Virus record (IMG/VR): IMGVR_UViG_2547132254_000003
Location: 1 to 33,007 of that record
DNA from: a virus
Lineage: Duplodnaviria; Heunggongvirae; Uroviricota; Caudoviricetes
Reading direction: 5' to 3' (one strand)
DNA: 33,007 nt
Shown here: positions 4,014 to 16,788 of the stretch, in pieces
Layout of the letters: every line of letters starts with the position of its first letter
Numbering within the stretch: position 1 is the first letter of the stretch
Notes under the pieces: generated by a model
Database searches by the model: none
What the model was told of the DNA's origin: nothing
The model's input: only the letters and a program-made list of their open reading frames with translations
Made by a program: the position numbers and the translations under genes

Positions 4014-4235
4014 TCACCATGACTCTGCTTTTACAGGTAAACCATCACGACCAAGGAAGACTTTAATCATGGTTTCCTTAATACAGTGTTGTGTGGAAAA
4101 ATCACGAATATAGAGCCGTTGTTTTTTAATGTTGTTTACCGAAGCAATATATGTTCTTCCTTTATGAATAACATAATCACCGGGAGTCACGCACTGACGA
4201 GGAATCTCATCAGTTCCGAAGTGATGAGCAATCAT
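4014..4235 (-). CDS. Small protein (about 73 aa) directly downstream of DicF; possible Kil/DicB-position cell-division inhibitor
   Basis: ORF track gives 4014..4247; the internal ATG at 4235 has GGAG upstream. Function is inferred only from position downstream of DicF (as dicB is in Qin) and from a 73-aa size like Rac KilR; the protein does not match my recollection of DicB. Confidence 0.45.
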
Positions 4236-4414
4236 AATTATCTCCATTTTTACAAATGAACTTTGTTGATGCGGTGCCTGGTGCCTCCAGGTGACGTTAA
4301 CCAGTTAACAATTAACGCCGGATACAGAGAATCCACCCATAACACTGTTTTTGGTTTTAACTGTTCCGCGTGCGCTCAGCCGCATTCACCACATCACAAA
4401 ATTCACTTTAAAAA

Positions 4415-4467
4415 GGGCGGCAGAGCAGTCACGGAGTAAAACTGATACCGCCAAACGTCACCAGAAA
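4415..4467 (-). ncRNA. dicF: DicF-like small RNA (53 nt) followed by a T-run
   Basis: Reverse complement of 4415-4467 reads TTTCTGGTGACGTTTGGCGGTATCAGTTTTACTCCGTGACTGCTCTGCCGCCC followed by TTTTTA, which matches my memory of E. coli Qin DicF. Located in the leftward early operon. Confidence 0.65.
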
Positions 4468-4800
4468 ATTGATAACAGAGGGCGTTGCAGCGGGGTTGTC
4501 ACTTAAGCGTATGGTCAACCTGACAACCCGGTGTCCTCAACGGGGAAGGAATAACCCCGCCATACTTACCGCCGCGCCATTTCGCGGAGTGCCACAACCG
4601 GAAGCGCACGGTCGACGAAAATTTAACGACAGGCTATCTATGAACCAACAACTTCGCCGTGCGCTTTCGCGTTATGCCCTGACTTTTCAGGGAGATATCC
4701 TTTCAGTAAACTGTCAGTGCCGGATGCTCACCCGTGTCCGGCGCACGCACTCCACCTCACCCGTGGAGAACTCCTTAATTACTAACCCTCAGGAGGATGA

Positions 4801-5077
4801 AATGGGGTTTGATGTCAATGAAACTCTTAACTCTCTTATACGGAAAATTAATGATTTTGATAAAACACTACAGCATGCTGCGGCGCGTAGTGATATAACA
4901 TTGTTAGCAATTTCATACCTTGCATCTGCCATGAATAAAGATGAAACGGTACGAAAGAATCTCGTTGATTATATCGACTCGCTTCAGCCGGGCACTTTCA
5001 ACCCTGAGAGCTTCAATCATGAGAAAGAGCATGTTAAATCTGTAATTAATTCTCTTGTTTTGAATCAAAAGAATTGA
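4801..5077 (+). CDS. Hypothetical protein, about 92 aa, AT-rich, opposite in orientation to the early-left operon
   Basis: ATG at 4801 preceded by AGGAGG at optimal spacing. The upstream part of the 4469..5077 frame overlaps the DicF region, is GC-rich and has no good start, so only the 4801 start is called. 3' end overlaps the convergent gene 5046..5375. Confidence 0.4.
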
Positions 5078-5375
5078 TGCTTCTTGTTACGAAGCAATTT
5101 TCAAGGGGTTCTATCCGAATCCCTTTCTTTTCCATTAACAAGCCAAACCCCTTATTAATGATGTCCATTAGATCCAGGAAGTATTTTTCATGTAAATCCT
5201 GGTTATCAGAGAGCTGCTTCTCTTCGTACAGACCGATAAAGGCACGACGCACGTTACCGGATATAGTATCGATGGTTTCTTTTTCTACGGTACTCAGGTC
5301 AAGAGTCGCCAGTTGGGAACGAACTATATTCGCTGCCATTTCCTGGAATTGCATTGGTAAATCTTTAAATTCCAT
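5046..5375 (-). CDS. Hypothetical protein, 109 aa, early-left operon
   Basis: ATG at 5375 with GAGG 7 nt upstream; 22-nt gap from the stop of the upstream gene (5398), consistent with an operon. No recognisable motif. Confidence 0.55.
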   Translation of the reverse strand: MEFKDLPMQFQEMAANIVRSQLATLDLSTVEKETIDTISGNVRRAFIGLYEEKQLSDNQDLHEKYFLDLMDIINKGFGLLMEKKGIRIEPLENCFVTRSINSFDSKQEN

Positions 5376-5397
5376 TATTAGCCTCGTTGGTTAGCTA

Positions 5398-5616
5398 TTA
5401 ACGCGGGTATGTAATCATTCTGGCAATGCTTAATGCCGCTGCTTTTTCCAGCCTGGTGATATCCTGCTCCAGAGCGGACAGATTTTCAGCCTGCTTAGCC
5501 CTGGCTTCATTGGCCCATTTCAAATCCTGCGCTGCATTAATTTTCTGGCGCATCCACTCATAAAGTTCATCATCGGTATAGTCTGGCGCGATGATGACAG
5601 GTTCTCGTTTCTGCAT
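5398..5616 (-). CDS. Hypothetical protein, about 72 aa, early-left operon
   Basis: ORF track starts at GTG 5655; the internal ATG at 5616 has AAGGAG 5 nt upstream. Coiled-coil-like C-terminus. Confidence 0.5.
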   Translation of the reverse strand: MQKREPVIIAPDYTDDELYEWMRQKINAAQDLKWANEARAKQAENLSALEQDITRLEKAAALSIARMITYPR

Positions 5617-5687
5617 GTCAGCTCCTTGTGGTTCGCATTGCCTGCTTTTAACCACGTCAGGCGAGGTGGTATCCTCTGAGGGGTCTG

Positions 5688-6044
5688 TTACTCGAGAGGA
5701 AATTGGTTATGAATACAATCAAGTTTTCTTGCCCAGAATGTGGTGGCGAAGTCTTTGACACATCCTTTAAGCCGCAGGGCTCTGACAGTTTCGCGGGAGC
5801 CATCTGCAAAAATTGTGGTCACCTTGTAACTGAAGATGAGTCCTCGCAGTTCGATGACGAAATCGTTGACAATATCTTCGGTGCACTCACCAGAGACTTT
5901 CTGAAATAAAGACGCATACCGCTTAGTTACCGCTCTGATAACTCTTACCTGTCCGGCAATGGCGCTGATGTCAATATAAAGCGCCATTGCTGCTTCTTTG
6001 CCGATCCCGTGATGCCTTCCATTCTGATGTTTGACTTCGCCCAC
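5688..6044 (-). CDS. Hypothetical protein, 118 aa; would be the first gene of the leftward early operon
   Basis: GTG start with AGAGGA upstream; operon context supports it, but it overlaps a plausible + strand zinc-ribbon ORF, so one of the two is probably not real. Confidence 0.3.
   Translation of the reverse strand: MGEVKHQNGRHHGIGKEAAMALYIDISAIAGQVRVIRAVTKRYASLFQKVSGECTEDIVNDFVIELRGLIFSYKVTTIFADGSRETVRALRLKGCVKDFATTFWARKLDCIHNQFPLE
5709..5909 (+). CDS. Small zinc-ribbon protein, about 66 aa (alternative to the overlapping - strand ORF)
   Basis: CPECGG ... CKNCGH four-cysteine motif with zinc-ribbon spacing; acidic C-terminus; GAGAGGA about 9 nt upstream of the ATG at 5709. Confidence 0.3.
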   Translation: MNTIKFSCPECGGEVFDTSFKPQGSDSFAGAICKNCGHLVTEDESSQFDDEIVDNIFGALTRDFLK

Positions 6045-6313: not shown

Positions 6314-6733
6314 CTATGATGCGTTTTGTGCTTTCTTTTTACGGATTTCTTCGTAGATCATATTGTAATACTGTTTTTTCTCTTCAAGAGTTTTTAATAA
6401 TTTATCCGCTTCACTTTCTGGCAGTTCGTCTAAGAGATCTAAAAAAATACGTTGTCGTGGCGTTAGAACCCTTGTTTCATAACTGGAGGCTGTGTTCGTT
6501 GATGATGAAACGATACCATCCATCCATCCCCGGGGTAACCCAAAGGACTCTTCGATAATCTCCACCATATCATCAGCGATCCGTTTTTTTCCCTTTTTCC
6601 CCTCTGGGTACAACATTCTTGATACATAAGAAGGCTCGCGCCCGATCTTTCTGGCCACGTTAACCGCTTTACCATCGCATTTCTCATCACGAATTTTGAT
6701 GAGTTGCTGTCGTCTAAATTCATATTTGTCCAT
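6314..6733 (-). CDS. Prophage repressor (CI/RacR-like HTH protein), 139 aa
   Basis: Divergent from a Cro/YdaS-like gene; flanked on both sides by TACC-n-GGTA palindromes; N-terminal region has HTH-like character. Family from context and motif reading. Confidence 0.65.
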   Translation of the reverse strand: MDKYEFRRQQLIKIRDEKCDGKAVNVARKIGREPSYVSRMLYPEGKKGKKRIADDMVEIIEESFGLPRGWMDGIVSSSTNTASSYETRVLTPRQRIFLDLLDELPESEADKLLKTLEEKKQYYNMIYEEIRKKKAQNAS

Positions 6734-11335: not shown

Positions 11336-11514
11336 TTTTATGGATCACCTTTCTGATTGATTTTATATTGGCGAGGTAACGGGAGTTAAGTAGAATGGCT
11401 GCGGGTGCTTGAGGCTATCTGTCTCAGGCATGAACACCAAAGGCAGATAGAGAAAAGCCCCAGTTAACATTACGCGTCCTGCAAGACGCTTAACATTAAT
11501 CTGAGGCTCAATCT

Positions 11515-11727
11515 ATGAACGGCAAATCTAGGTTAGCCTCTTACGTGCCGAAAGGCAAGGAGAAGCAGGCTATGAAGCAGCAAAAGGCGATGTTAATCGC
11601 CCTGATCGTCATCTGTTTAACCGTCATTGTGACGGCACTGGTAACGAGGAAAGACCTCTGCGAGGTACGAATCCGAACCGGCCAGACGGAGGTCGCTGTC
11701 TTCACAGCTTACGAACCTGAGGAGTAA
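11515..11727 (+). CDS. mok: Mok-like in-frame leader ORF overlapping hok, 70 aa
   Basis: In-frame upstream extension of the Hok ORF with GAGG upstream, analogous to chromosomal mokC/hokC organisation. Confidence 0.45.
   Translation: MNGKSRLASYVPKGKEKQAMKQQKAMLIALIVICLTVIVTALVTRKDLCEVRIRTGQTEVAVFTAYEPEE
11572..11727 (+). CDS. hok: Hok/Gef-family type I toxin, 51 aa
   Basis: MKQQKAMLIALIVICLTVIVTALVTRKDLCEVRIRTGQTEVAVFTAYEPEE: single TM helix plus the conserved RKDLCEV-IRTGQTEVAVFTAYE core of Hok/Gef; AAGGAG upstream of the ATG. Confidence 0.8.
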   Translation: MKQQKAMLIALIVICLTVIVTALVTRKDLCEVRIRTGQTEVAVFTAYEPEE

Positions 11728-11799: not shown

Positions 11800-13128
11800 C
11801 TGATGAATCCCCTAATGATTTTTATCAAAATCATTAAGTTAAGGTAGATACACATCTTGTCATATGATCAAATGGTTTCGCCAAAAATCAATAATCAGAC
11901 AACAAAATGTGCGAACTCGATATTTTACACGACTCTCTTTACCAATTCTGCCCCGAATTACACTTAAAACGACTCAACTGCTTAACGTTGGCTTGCCACG
12001 CCTTACTTGACTGTAAAACTCTCACTCTTACCGAACTTGGCCGTAACCTGCCAACCAAAGCGAGAACAAAACATAACATCAAACGAATCGACCGATTGTT
12101 AGGTAATCGTCACCTCCACAAAGAGCGACTCGCTGTATACCGTTGGCATGCTAGCTTTATCTGTTCGGGCAATACGATGCCCATTGTACTTGTTGACTGG
12201 TCTGATATCCGTGAGCAAAAACGGCTTATGGTATTGCGAGCTTCAGTCGCACTACACGGTCGTTCTGTTACTCTTTATGAGAAAGCGTTCCCGCTTTCAG
12301 AGCAATGTTCAAAGAAAGCTCATGACCAATTTCTAGCCGACCTTGCGAGCATTCTACCGAGTAACACCACACCGCTCATTGTCAGTGATGCTGGCTTTAA
12401 AGTGCCATGGTATAAATCCGTTGAGAAGCTGGGTTGGTACTGGTTAAGTCGAGTAAGAGGAAAAGTACAATATGCAGACCTAGGAGCGGAAAACTGGAAA
12501 CCTATCAGCAACTTACATGATATGTCATCTAGTCACTCAAAGACTTTAGGCTATAAGAGGCTGACTAAAAGCAATCCAATCTCATGCCAAATTCTATTGT
12601 ATAAATCTCGCTCTAAAGGCCGAAAAAATCAGCGCTCGACACGGACTCATTGTCACCACCCGTCACCTAAAATCTACTCAGCGTCGGCAAAGGAGCCATG
12701 GATTCTAGCAACTAACTTACCTGTTGAAATTCGAACACCCAAACAACTTGTTAATATCTATTCGAAGCGAATGCAGATTGAAGAAACCTTCCGAGACTTG
12801 AAAAGTCCTGCCTACGGACTAGGCCTACGCCATAGCCGAACGAGCAGCTCAGAGCGTTTTGATATCATGCTGCTAATCGCCCTGATGCTTCAACTAACAT
12901 GTTGGCTTGCGGGCGTTCATGCTCAGAAACAAGGTTGGGACAAGCACTTCCAGGCTAACACAGTCAGAAATCGAAACGTACTCTCAACAGTTCGCTTAGG
13001 CATGGAAGTTTTGCGGCATTCTGGCTACACAATAACAAGGGAAGACTCACTCGTGGCTGCAACCCTGCTTACTCAAAATCTATTCACACATGGTTACGTT
13101 TTGGGGAAATTATGAGGGGATCTCTCAG
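11800..13128 (+). mobile_element. IS10 (IS4 family), 1329 bp, intact, with terminal inverted repeats
   Basis: Left end CTGATGAATCCCCTAATGATTTT (IS10 outside end), right end reverse complement CTGAGAGATCCCCTCATAATTTCCCC (inside end); length 1329 bp; flanked by a perfect 9-bp direct repeat. Confidence 0.9.
11907..13115 (+). CDS. IS10 transposase, 402 aa
   Basis: Full-length ORF, MCELDILHDSLYQFCPELHLKRLN... matching my recollection of IS10/Tn10 transposase almost residue for residue; no frameshift or stop. Confidence 0.9.
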   Translation: MCELDILHDSLYQFCPELHLKRLNCLTLACHALLDCKTLTLTELGRNLPTKARTKHNIKRIDRLLGNRHLHKERLAVYRWHASFICSGNTMPIVLVDWSDIREQKRLMVLRASVALHGRSVTLYEKAFPLSEQCSKKAHDQFLADLASILPSNTTPLIVSDAGFKVPWYKSVEKLGWYWLSRVRGKVQYADLGAENWKPISNLHDMSSSHSKTLGYKRLTKSNPISCQILLYKSRSKGRKNQRSTRTHCHHPSPKIYSASAKEPWILATNLPVEIRTPKQLVNIYSKRMQIEETFRDLKSPAYGLGLRHSRTSSSERFDIMLLIALMLQLTCWLAGVHAQKQGWDKHFQANTVRNRNVLSTVRLGMEVLRHSGYTITREDSLVAATLLTQNLFTHGYVLGKL

Positions 13129-16478: not shown

Positions 16479-16554
16479 GGCCCTTTAGCTCAGTGGTGAG
16501 AGCGAGCGACTCATAATCGCCAGGTCGCTGGTTCAAATCCAGCAAGGGCCACCA
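16479..16554 (+). tRNA. tRNA with anticodon CAU, Ile2 (lysidine)-like, 76 nt, CCA encoded
   Basis: Cloverleaf folds by eye; anticodon loop CUCAUAA; close to my memory of E. coli ileX. Ile versus Met cannot be decided from the anticodon alone. Confidence 0.75.
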
Positions 16555-16555
16555 G

Positions 16556-16632
16556 CCGCCACTAGCTCATCAGGAAAGAGCGTCAACCCTTTAAGTTGAG
16601 TGTGCGAGGTTCGAGTCCCCGGTGGCGGTCCA
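16556..16632 (+). tRNA. tRNA-like gene, 77 nt, noncanonical anticodon loop; identity uncertain
   Basis: All stems pair except one A-C mismatch in the T-stem; anticodon loop CCUUUAA has C at position 33 (normally U), giving nominal anticodon UUU; begins with C1-G72. Confidence 0.5.
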
Positions 16633-16634
16633 GT

Positions 16635-16710
<76 letters not shown>

Positions 16711-16713
16711 TAT

Positions 16714-16788
<75 letters not shown>

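Follow-up and report, generated by a model that had tools for sequence, protein, structure and literature searches.

The window analyzed here, a stretch of 33,007 nucleotides (nt) that makes up positions 1 to 33,007 of the IMG/VR virus record IMGVR_UViG_2547132254_000003, is an apparently complete lambdoid prophage of E. coli with lysis, terminase, head and tail open reading frames (ORFs) downstream of its early region. Within its early-left operon, which runs on the minus strand, lie two small convergent ORFs that overlap tail-to-tail and that the original prediction had described as one compositionally foreign gene pair. We found that they are independent, abutting genes without a fixed partner. 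The minus-strand ORF is an ordinary, modular member of the early-left operon, and the plus-strand ORF is probably a moron (as defined in PMC7380047) that is expressed in the lysogen from a promoter and structured leader shared with other cargo genes. The features concerned are the following.

4467-4788: GC-rich structured element, the 'long untranslated region' between ydfC and dicF in Qin-type operons.
4684-4712, plus strand: predicted sigma-70 promoter of the plus-strand ORF (-35 TTTTCA at 4684-4689, 17-nt spacer, -10 TAAACT at 4707-4712).
4719-4742, plus strand: leader hairpin HpA, GCCGGATGC-N6-GTGTCCGGC, also written GCCGGA-N12-TCCGGC.
4750-4768, plus strand: leader hairpin HpB, CTCCAC-N7-GTGGAG.
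4771-4775 with 4791-4795, plus strand: helix of CTCCT with AGGAGG (4791-4796), predicted to sequester the ribosome-binding site.
4789-5379: insertion of ~590 bp relative to empty-site phages, comprising the Shine-Dalgarno (SD) sequence, the plus-strand ORF and the minus-strand ORF up to its start codon (the cassette).
4791-4796, plus strand: SD sequence AGGAGG, followed by a 5-nt spacer and ATG 4802.
4802-5077, plus strand: the plus-strand ORF, 91 codons and TGA (stop 5075-5077), encoding 91 amino acids (aa).
5046-5375, minus strand: the minus-strand ORF, 109 aa.
5103-5135, plus strand: terminator-like hairpin with 9 pairs and a T-rich tail, 26 nt after the stop of the plus-strand ORF and matched by the terminator scan.

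The two ORFs overlap by 32 nt (5046-5077), so that the predicted tail-to-tail arrangement with a 109-aa minus-strand frame was confirmed. The predicted AGGAGG also held, although the plus-strand ORF starts at 4802 rather than 4801 and has 91 rather than 92 aa. The block was rightly described as more AT-rich than the adjoining stretch: the GC content is 38.7% in the cassette (36.6% in the plus-strand ORF and 39.1% in the minus-strand ORF), compared with 54.3% at 4467-4788 and 49.4% in the entire window. Because the nearby kil gene is likewise AT-rich (38.0% GC), this composition is by itself unremarkable within the early-left operon. The location between the immunity region and the recombination genes was also correctly recognized, as was the lack of any familiar motif: neither protein matches Pfam, NCBIfam or PADLOC, and both are real genes outside any family with a known function.

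The plus-strand ORF is a real gene whose sequence variation points to purifying selection on the protein. Only 1.1% of shuffles of the segment contained an open frame of 91 codons or more. The ORF occurs as two alleles with 78-80% amino-acid identity, which over the 243 nt outside the overlap show 42 base differences and only 18 residue changes; none of 5000 random placements of 42 substitutions gave as few residue changes, and the ratio of nonsynonymous to synonymous substitution rates (dN/dS) was 0.26-0.32 (NG86). Intact full-length variants carry in-frame insertions and deletions only, namely a 5-aa duplication and deletions of 1, 5 and 9 aa. A few variants are truncated or frameshifted (P0128, P0132, P0133 and P0135), and intact forms dominate, with P0123 representing 481 member sequences. 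A dN/dS of ~0.3 together with the in-frame changes thus settles the concern, raised with the original prediction, that a conservation analysis might reveal this frame to be non-coding.

No PHROG matched the plus-strand ORF at E <= 0.1, and its best match in PADLOC-DB v2, BrxA (E 0.024, 12 bits), was noise. Its family comprises only 11 protein clusters among 5.8 billion proteins, all from Escherichia. In a search of 1.84 billion representative proteins, the family profile matched P0138 over its full length (E 3.5e-5), and P0138 in turn matched phrog_18692 at 8e-21; by these profile matches the plus-strand ORF is probably a remote relative of phrog_18692 proteins, and the enlarged family takes in Salmonella proteins. 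The product is acidic (isoelectric point (pI) 5.8), with a maximal 19-residue Kyte-Doolittle hydropathy of 1.09 and no transmembrane segment, and the AlphaFold2 (AF2) model contains four helices at a predicted local distance difference test (pLDDT) score of 62.8. It is therefore predicted to be a soluble, all-helical protein. The sequence profile had no PDB match below E 0.05, and a Foldseek comparison with the PDB yielded no usable fold match (best E 2.8 and 1.3 for the two proteins).

RefSeq, by its PGAP annotation, extends the plus-strand ORF to 145 aa (WP_001317923.1), beginning at ATG 4640 and spanning 4640-5077. We rejected this start: the ATG is missing in O157 Z1812, the extension would run through the structured leader, and phage PPompW has an in-frame TGA directly before its cargo ATG, which indicates that the SD-proximal ATG is the true start. 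The RefSeq annotation is probably over-extended.

The minus-strand ORF has a different character. Its residues 1-107 match the 124-position profile of PHROG 6937 (E 4.3e-67), and its N-terminal ~55 aa (MEFKDLP...) also match phrogs 1363, 2151, 9419 and 33007, which differ from PHROG 6937 in their C-terminal parts. Because this N-terminal domain is common to at least five PHROGs with differing C-terminal parts, the minus-strand ORF is a modular early protein. We collected 235 homologues; over 45 alleles, dN/dS was 0.20 for residues 1-55 and 0.29 for residues 56-95. Genes of the PHROG 6937 type lie in the early-left operon, downstream of ydfC-type genes and on the same strand. The minus-strand ORF is thus an ordinary member of the early-left operon, and its product combines a conserved ~55-aa domain at the N-terminus with a C-terminal module that can be exchanged. 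Homology to ordinary early proteins was found for this ORF, which undercuts the 'foreign pair' in part. The AF2 model of its product has four helices (pLDDT 70.2), and no solved structure was found by sequence profile (none below E 0.05) or by fold (Foldseek against the PDB). Its extreme C-terminus varies, giving proteins of 106, 109 or 124 aa.

The operon that contains this gene is a hybrid of dicBF and Rac types, with the order ydfC, minus-strand ORF, DicF, dicB remnant, kil and recE. Two of its members flank the region discussed here.

4415-4466, minus strand: DicF small RNA (Rfam RF00039, 76.7 bits against a gathering score of 48, full length).
5398-5616, minus strand: ydfC, the upstream operon neighbour of the minus-strand ORF (PGAP annotation of identical DNA in other strains).

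Comparison with syntenic prophages, which had been proposed along with the original prediction, revealed that the block is a presence/absence insertion. Its bounds were taken from alignment with the phages Tritos, PPompW and Evi and with forms in which the minus-strand ORF stands alone. Tritos and K-12 Qin are empty sites, in which ydfC is joined straight to the ~320-nt region upstream of dicF. PPompW and Evi carry another convergent pair at the same site, 77 aa on the plus strand and 135 aa on the minus strand, and O157 and many other strains have the minus-strand ORF alone in a 124-aa form. At least 80% of the cassette was present in 198 of 5426 complete E. coli genomes and any part of it in 1358, most of the partial matches covering the half with the minus-strand ORF only. 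Among 80 IMG/VR loci, the plus-strand ORF stood beside all 33 copies of the 106/109-aa minus-strand form and none of the 47 copies of the 124-aa form. The minus-strand family is widespread in early operons and alone in 47 of the 80 loci, which does not fit one foreign gene pair.

Four cargo types, all of them preceded in IMG/VR by the identical junction CCCTCAGGAGGNTGAA(A)TG, were distinguished.

T1: plus-strand ORF of 77 aa, minus-strand partner of 135 aa, overlap 23 nt.
T2: plus-strand ORF of 92 aa, minus-strand partner of 133 aa, overlap 41 nt.
T3 (the window's type): plus-strand ORF of 91 aa, minus-strand partner of 106/109 aa, overlap 23/32 nt.
T4: plus-strand ORF of 73 aa, minus-strand partner of 124 aa, overlap 11 nt.

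Five further cargo families share the same leader, so that at least nine sequence-unrelated families of small ORFs (32-93 aa) were present among the loci examined. The cargo ORFs fall in differing PHROGs or in none, and eleven alternative cargo proteins compared with Pfam, NCBIfam, PADLOC and PHROGs matched only PHROGs of 'unknown function'. An hhalign comparison of the T2 and T3 plus-strand ORFs gave a P of only 0.002. In two loci (L216 2912-3259 and L224 2459-2814) the cargo is a proline-rich ORF of 32-36 aa with a 156-aa protein close behind it, and the two are possibly translationally coupled; the 156-aa protein has two predicted membrane helices and belongs to phrog_6315 (unknown function). 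Leader copies of the enterobacterial type also occurred in L216, a record titled Chryseobacterium sp., and in L218, a Collinsella metagenome-assembled genome, and are probably due to contamination or mis-binning. A scan of genome contigs for the HpA core found 3 loci only, 2 of them probably contamination.

The stretch on which the cargo genes depend for their expression, according to our reading, was previously described as a GC-rich, non-coding stretch at 4470-4800; it is GC-rich, but more than a non-coding spacer. Judged by its conservation and pairing pattern, 4467-4788 is a conserved structured element rather than filler, and it contains the predicted promoter and leader of the plus-strand ORF in its ydfC-proximal ~105 nt. 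It is 95-97% identical in many lambdoid phages and K-12 Qin, and, unexpectedly, it also occurs directly upstream of homologues of the plus-strand ORF in lambdoid and P2/186-like prophages of Salmonella, which have no aligning DicF. RNAalifold predicted 55 pairs for the element, 18 of them with compensatory changes, and the minus strand folds with z = -3.4. A permissive Rfam scan of 4200-5700 (E <= 10) found no family in 4467-4800 on either strand. Three loci (L221, L222 and L224) have the ~100-nt leader alone, without the remainder of the element.

Within the leader, HpA is nearly invariant in E. coli and Salmonella, in lambdoid and P2-like prophages, though its surroundings vary; 99% of its cells are paired and no covariation was observed, and this near-invariance suggests a specific binding or processing site. 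The HpB stem covaries (CTCCAC/GTGGAG, CCCGAC/GTCGGG and CCCAAC/GTTGGG), with double changes at two pairs. The anti-SD/SD helix appears in the minimum-free-energy folds of the window and of L209, and its fifth pair changes between U-A and A-U in the E. coli and Salmonella types (8 and 6 sequences, respectively). In the leader as a whole, 95.2% of cells are paired, and its covariation score of 0.168 compares with 0.070 in shuffles (none of 500 reached 0.168) and at most 0.043 in slid controls.

Transcription signals were predicted on both sides of the cargo. The predicted transcript start of the plus-strand ORF is ~4718-4720, and in the homologous K-12 Qin copy a minus-strand start is predicted at ~1,649,129-1,649,135. 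An extended -10 sequence (TGnTATTAT, TGnTATAGA or similar) ends 4-9 nt before HpA in 7 of 11 upstream contexts, where 2.5% is expected (binomial P about 2e-9, for contexts that are not fully independent); the TTTTCA-17-TAAACT of the window is weaker than the extended -10 of its relatives. The terminator-like hairpin sits inside the codons ..KKGIRIEPLE.. of the minus-strand ORF, and a comparable hairpin and T-tail follow the cargo in 11 of 15 representatives.

Promoter, leader, ORF, terminator, deviant composition and presence/absence are together hallmarks of a moron. In the mechanism that we propose, this moron would have been inserted antisense into the repressor-controlled early-left operon, at the position that sieB has in Rac. 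The sigma-70 promoter at 4684-4712 would start a transcript at ~4718, whose ~85-nt leader would fold into HpA, HpB and the short SD-masking helix; the 91-aa soluble helical protein would be translated, and transcription would end at the hairpin at 5103-5135, within the minus-strand ORF. The unit faces the early-left promoter and would for that reason be expressed while the prophage is repressed. After induction, by analogy with sieB, convergent transcription and a fully complementary early transcript would silence it. The promoter-leader would serve as a shared platform, and recombination between it and the conserved 5' part of the minus-strand ORF would swap the cargo. In this scheme we infer promoter activity, expression timing, antisense shut-off and protein function, whereas the comparisons themselves show that both ORFs are coding, that the insertion is polymorphic, that the leader is shared and covaries, that the cargo is diverse and that a fixed partner is lacking. 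The protein may tentatively be given a lysogen-expressed role that benefits the prophage, for instance in superinfection exclusion or in abortive infection through the binding of a protein target, a guess drawn from position alone.

Several observations weigh against this reading. With 8 of 12 consensus positions matched, the promoter of the window falls short of the 9/12 cut-off used in the promoter scan, which did not list it. The cassette was absent from all 50,697 phage records searched. The AF2 models of both proteins have low confidence and matched no known fold, and comparison with Pfam, NCBIfam and PADLOC gave no similarity to a known defence, exclusion, toxin or antitoxin family. The covariation of the leader comes from three base pairs and few independent events. 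Single-step variants favour either strand, and the ratio of G-U to A-C was 74:13 in the plus fold and 53:15 in the minus fold, counts that do not separate the strands for the dicF-proximal ~220 nt of the element because G-U pairs accumulate in the fold of whichever strand is considered. On its minus strand, this DNA is certainly transcribed into the DicF precursor (PMC5069750), and part of the conservation of the element may serve that RNA. Finally, empty sites keep the leader without any cargo.

The last observation also speaks for an alternative in which the plus-strand RNA is a brake that, by transcriptional interference or antisense pairing, limits leakage from the genes for DicF, DicB and Kil, which are toxic, with the ORFs as passengers. 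The promoter-leader kept at the empty sites of K-12 Qin and Tritos would read antisense into ydfC-ydfA, the dicBF operon is both toxic and kept under tight repression (PMC5069750), and the sequence of HpA is conserved far beyond the needs of a generic leader. We nevertheless consider such a brake unlikely. The plus-strand ORF is under purifying selection as a protein, a strong SD sequence with optimal spacing is kept for all cargo types, and a terminator-like signal just after the ORF would limit the reach of the antisense RNA.

The two ORFs could also be a cognate two-gene module, either resembling a toxin-antitoxin system or consisting of a defence effector (the plus-strand ORF) and a self-immunity factor (the C-terminal part of the minus-strand ORF). 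The immunity factor would be made during the phage's own lytic growth, and the convergent overlap would couple expression of both genes. Each type of plus-strand ORF indeed occurs with one C-terminal type of minus-strand ORF, always overlapping (by 11, 23, 23/32 or 41 nt), and both the T2 plus-strand ORF and the C-terminal domain of its partner are conserved between E. coli and Salmonella lambdoid prophages. The Salmonella homologues of the plus-strand ORF have as partners a stand-alone 71-aa protein, helix-turn-helix (HTH) proteins of 171-191 aa without the domain, or a 214-aa HTH protein whose domain is weakly similar. The stand-alone 71-aa protein is 60% identical to the T2 partner domain, and a domain of one Salmonella P2-like partner is weakly similar to residues 59-93 of the minus-strand ORF (hhalign E 1e-4). 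Prophage defence with self-immunity also has a precedent in BstA (PMC8585504).

Most of the comparative evidence argues for separate genes. The core of the minus-strand ORF is alone in the 47 IMG/VR loci mentioned above and in most matching E. coli genomes, and the same core also stands beside the unrelated cargo of type T4. The T2 and T3 plus-strand ORFs are homologous and face C-terminal domains that are not, for which reason co-divergence of the plus-strand ORF with the C-terminal domain of the minus-strand ORF was rejected. Salmonella L209-L211 keep the plus-strand ORF beside a 171-aa partner without the domain, and partners of this length in Salmonella P2-like prophages have no such domain. 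Relatives of the plus-strand ORF thus stand beside partners with non-homologous C-terminal domains or with none, contrary to the gene pair of the original prediction. The stretch similar to residues 59-93 overlaps the predicted plus-strand terminator and may travel as part of the moron. Genes whose DNA physically overlaps would be linked in any case, and neither protein resembles a known toxin or antitoxin family in Pfam, NCBIfam or PADLOC. The tail overlap is best explained by the minus-strand gene reading into the inserted DNA up to the first stop codon, as a result of which its extreme C-terminus varies. A cognate module is therefore improbable.

Expression of the plus-strand ORF at infection or induction rather than in the lysogen, for host take-over or anti-defence, would suit a small acidic helical protein (pI 5.8) like many small lambdoid early proteins, and also its host-modulating early neighbours (kil, the dicB remnant and DicF). 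We regard this as quite improbable, since the ORF opposes the sole early transcription unit that crosses it and so needs its own promoter, the predicted promoter is of the ordinary sigma-70 type, and prophage expression is documented for sieB, the analogous antisense gene (PMC10883804). That the plus-strand ORF is a chance frame or decaying pseudogene, with only the minus-strand ORF and the RNA element functional, might be suggested by its very narrow family (the 11 Escherichia clusters), its low-confidence AF2 model and its few truncated variants, but this is effectively refuted by the dN/dS of ~0.3 and the random placements, by the in-frame changes in intact variants and the 481 members of P0123, and by the full-length remote homologue family in Salmonella.

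If the plus-strand ORF is a lysogen-expressed moron beside an ordinary early gene, a routine early gene is told apart from a separately controlled lysogen gene, and the long untranslated region of the well-studied dicBF operon gains a second role on the opposite strand. The HpA-HpB-SD leader would be a sequence handle for finding small uncharacterized prophage proteins in E. coli and Salmonella, and the cargo proteins at the classic sieB position would be good candidates for new exclusion or abortive-infection factors. A broader and decidedly speculative possibility is that the ~100-nt promoter-leader is a dedicated portable platform that defines a cassette-exchange locus in lambdoid and P2/186-like prophages of Enterobacteriaceae. 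At least nine small-protein families would have been swapped into it, expressed in the lysogen and shut off at induction, as a reservoir of exclusion or anti-phage effectors, and HpA would be a specific recognition site for a protein or RNase rather than simply a hairpin that adds stability. If the promoter is inactive, the finding shrinks to two ordinary hypothetical prophage genes.

Other features of the window were recorded around the cassette. In RefSeq entries with identical DNA, the minus-strand order is integrase, DUF4224 protein, recE-type exonuclease, kil, an 84-nt dicB remnant and DicF, followed beyond DicF by a hypothetical plus-strand gene, a hypothetical 109-aa gene and ydfC. Over the spacer after DicF (4228-4413, minus strand) there is a match to STnc100 below the Rfam threshold (37.9 bits against a gathering score of 47). 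In the same part of the minus strand, which includes 4014-4247, all that is left of dicB is the 84-nt remnant, annotated by PGAP as a pseudogene in identical strains, and a Rac-type kil comes next; this arrangement resembles the junction of a Qin/Rac hybrid. On the right-hand side of ydfC, the window diverges from strains that are identical over 4250-5400, among them E. coli 20Ec-P-124 and CE0007a (100% identity). A 68-aa plus-strand ORF at 5703-5909 has weak zinc-ribbon matches (best DUF5795, E 6e-5, under the Pfam cut-off) and is overlapped by a 118-aa minus-strand ORF at 5688-6044. At the position of the repressor gene, a 139-aa ORF (6314-6733, minus strand) has no Pfam match. Further downstream are a sok antitoxin RNA (110 bits), hence a hok/sok-type locus, adjoining RNA-OUT and a 402-aa transposase ORF, and then a tRNA cluster upstream of the lysis and morphogenesis genes. 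RNA-OUT and the transposase ORF are an IS10-like element within the prophage.

11403-11577, plus strand: sok RNA.
11845-11914, minus strand: RNA-OUT.
11907-13115, plus strand: 402-aa transposase ORF.
16479-16785, plus strand: tRNA cluster of 4 genes.

Among known systems, one close counterpart is the Qin dicBF operon, which consists of ydfA-ydfB-ydfC, a long untranslated region with dicF, and dicB-ydfD (PMC5069750). On the minus strand of the window, ydfC, this untranslated region of ~320 nt and DicF follow one another as they do in Qin; the window differs in that the minus-strand ORF and the antisense plus-strand ORF are added between ydfC and the untranslated region, and in that dicB is a remnant replaced by a Rac-type kil. 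A literature search found no described hotspot, antisense transcript or plus-strand function between ydfC and dicF. Type II toxin-antitoxin genes are co-directional, co-transcribed and always together, whereas the ORFs of the window are convergent, the minus-strand ORF is often alone, and relatives of the plus-strand ORF occur without the partner domain.

The anti-phage hotspots of P2-like phages and P4-like satellites (PMC9122126) likewise have a fixed locus, conserved flanks and alternative cargo. Here, in contrast, the cargo consists of single small ORFs of 32-93 aa (one variant with the 156-aa two-transmembrane protein), the flank that defines the locus resembles an RNA leader and does not consist of conserved protein genes, and no cargo matches known defence families. 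Presence or absence between near-identical phages, a lower GC content than the flanks, a predicted promoter and terminator of its own and a predicted transcription independent of the surrounding operon all liken the plus-strand ORF to a moron. Classical phage morons are reportedly promoter-gene-terminator add-ons (Juhala et al. 2000). The present case differs from them in that a single conserved platform of promoter, 5' leader and SD sequence is common to at least nine cargo ORFs unrelated to one another, in that the platform occurs in two unrelated phage lineages, lambdoid and P2/186-like, which is outside the usual moron concept, and in that the terminator-like hairpin of the plus-strand ORF lies within a convergent coding gene.

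The sieB gene of lambda, P22 and Rac is a close counterpart in position. Placed between kil and the repressor, it runs antisense within the early-left operon and has an overlap with a small convergent early gene at the latter's 3' end (ydaF in Rac). In P22, the sieB message is reportedly targeted by an antisense RNA that comes from the early-left transcript (Ranade and Poteete 1993). The order in Rac is kilR (minus), KilS (minus), a partial copy of the element, sieB (plus) and ydaF (minus), the last overlapping sieB tail-to-tail by 4 nt; that in the window is kil (minus), DicF (minus), the element, the plus-strand ORF (plus) and the minus-strand ORF (minus) overlapping it. The plus-strand ORF thus occupies the sieB slot, and the original description of cargo in a typical spot was right for this ORF and not for the minus-strand ORF. 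In Rac, sieB is likewise preceded by a partial GC-rich element and a DicF-like small RNA, KilS (described in PMC8175672). KilS resembles DicF in its terminator hairpin and has its 5' end inside the Rac remnant of the element, whose central helix is kept ~100 nt upstream of sieB (L225 2906-3172, equivalent to K-12 Rac 1,418,405-1,418,671). The plus-strand ORF lies outside the SieB family, with no homology and no membrane segment: BLASTP against Rac SieB gave a 10-residue match only (E 1.3), no Pfam or PHROG SieB match was obtained, and SieB is a 162-aa basic membrane protein with a maximal hydropathy of 2.19, in contrast to the 91-aa acidic, soluble helical product with 1.09. Produced by the prophage, SieB prevents superinfecting phages from completing lytic growth (PMC10883804); the plus-strand ORF may be its functional analogue, an analogy drawn from position alone.

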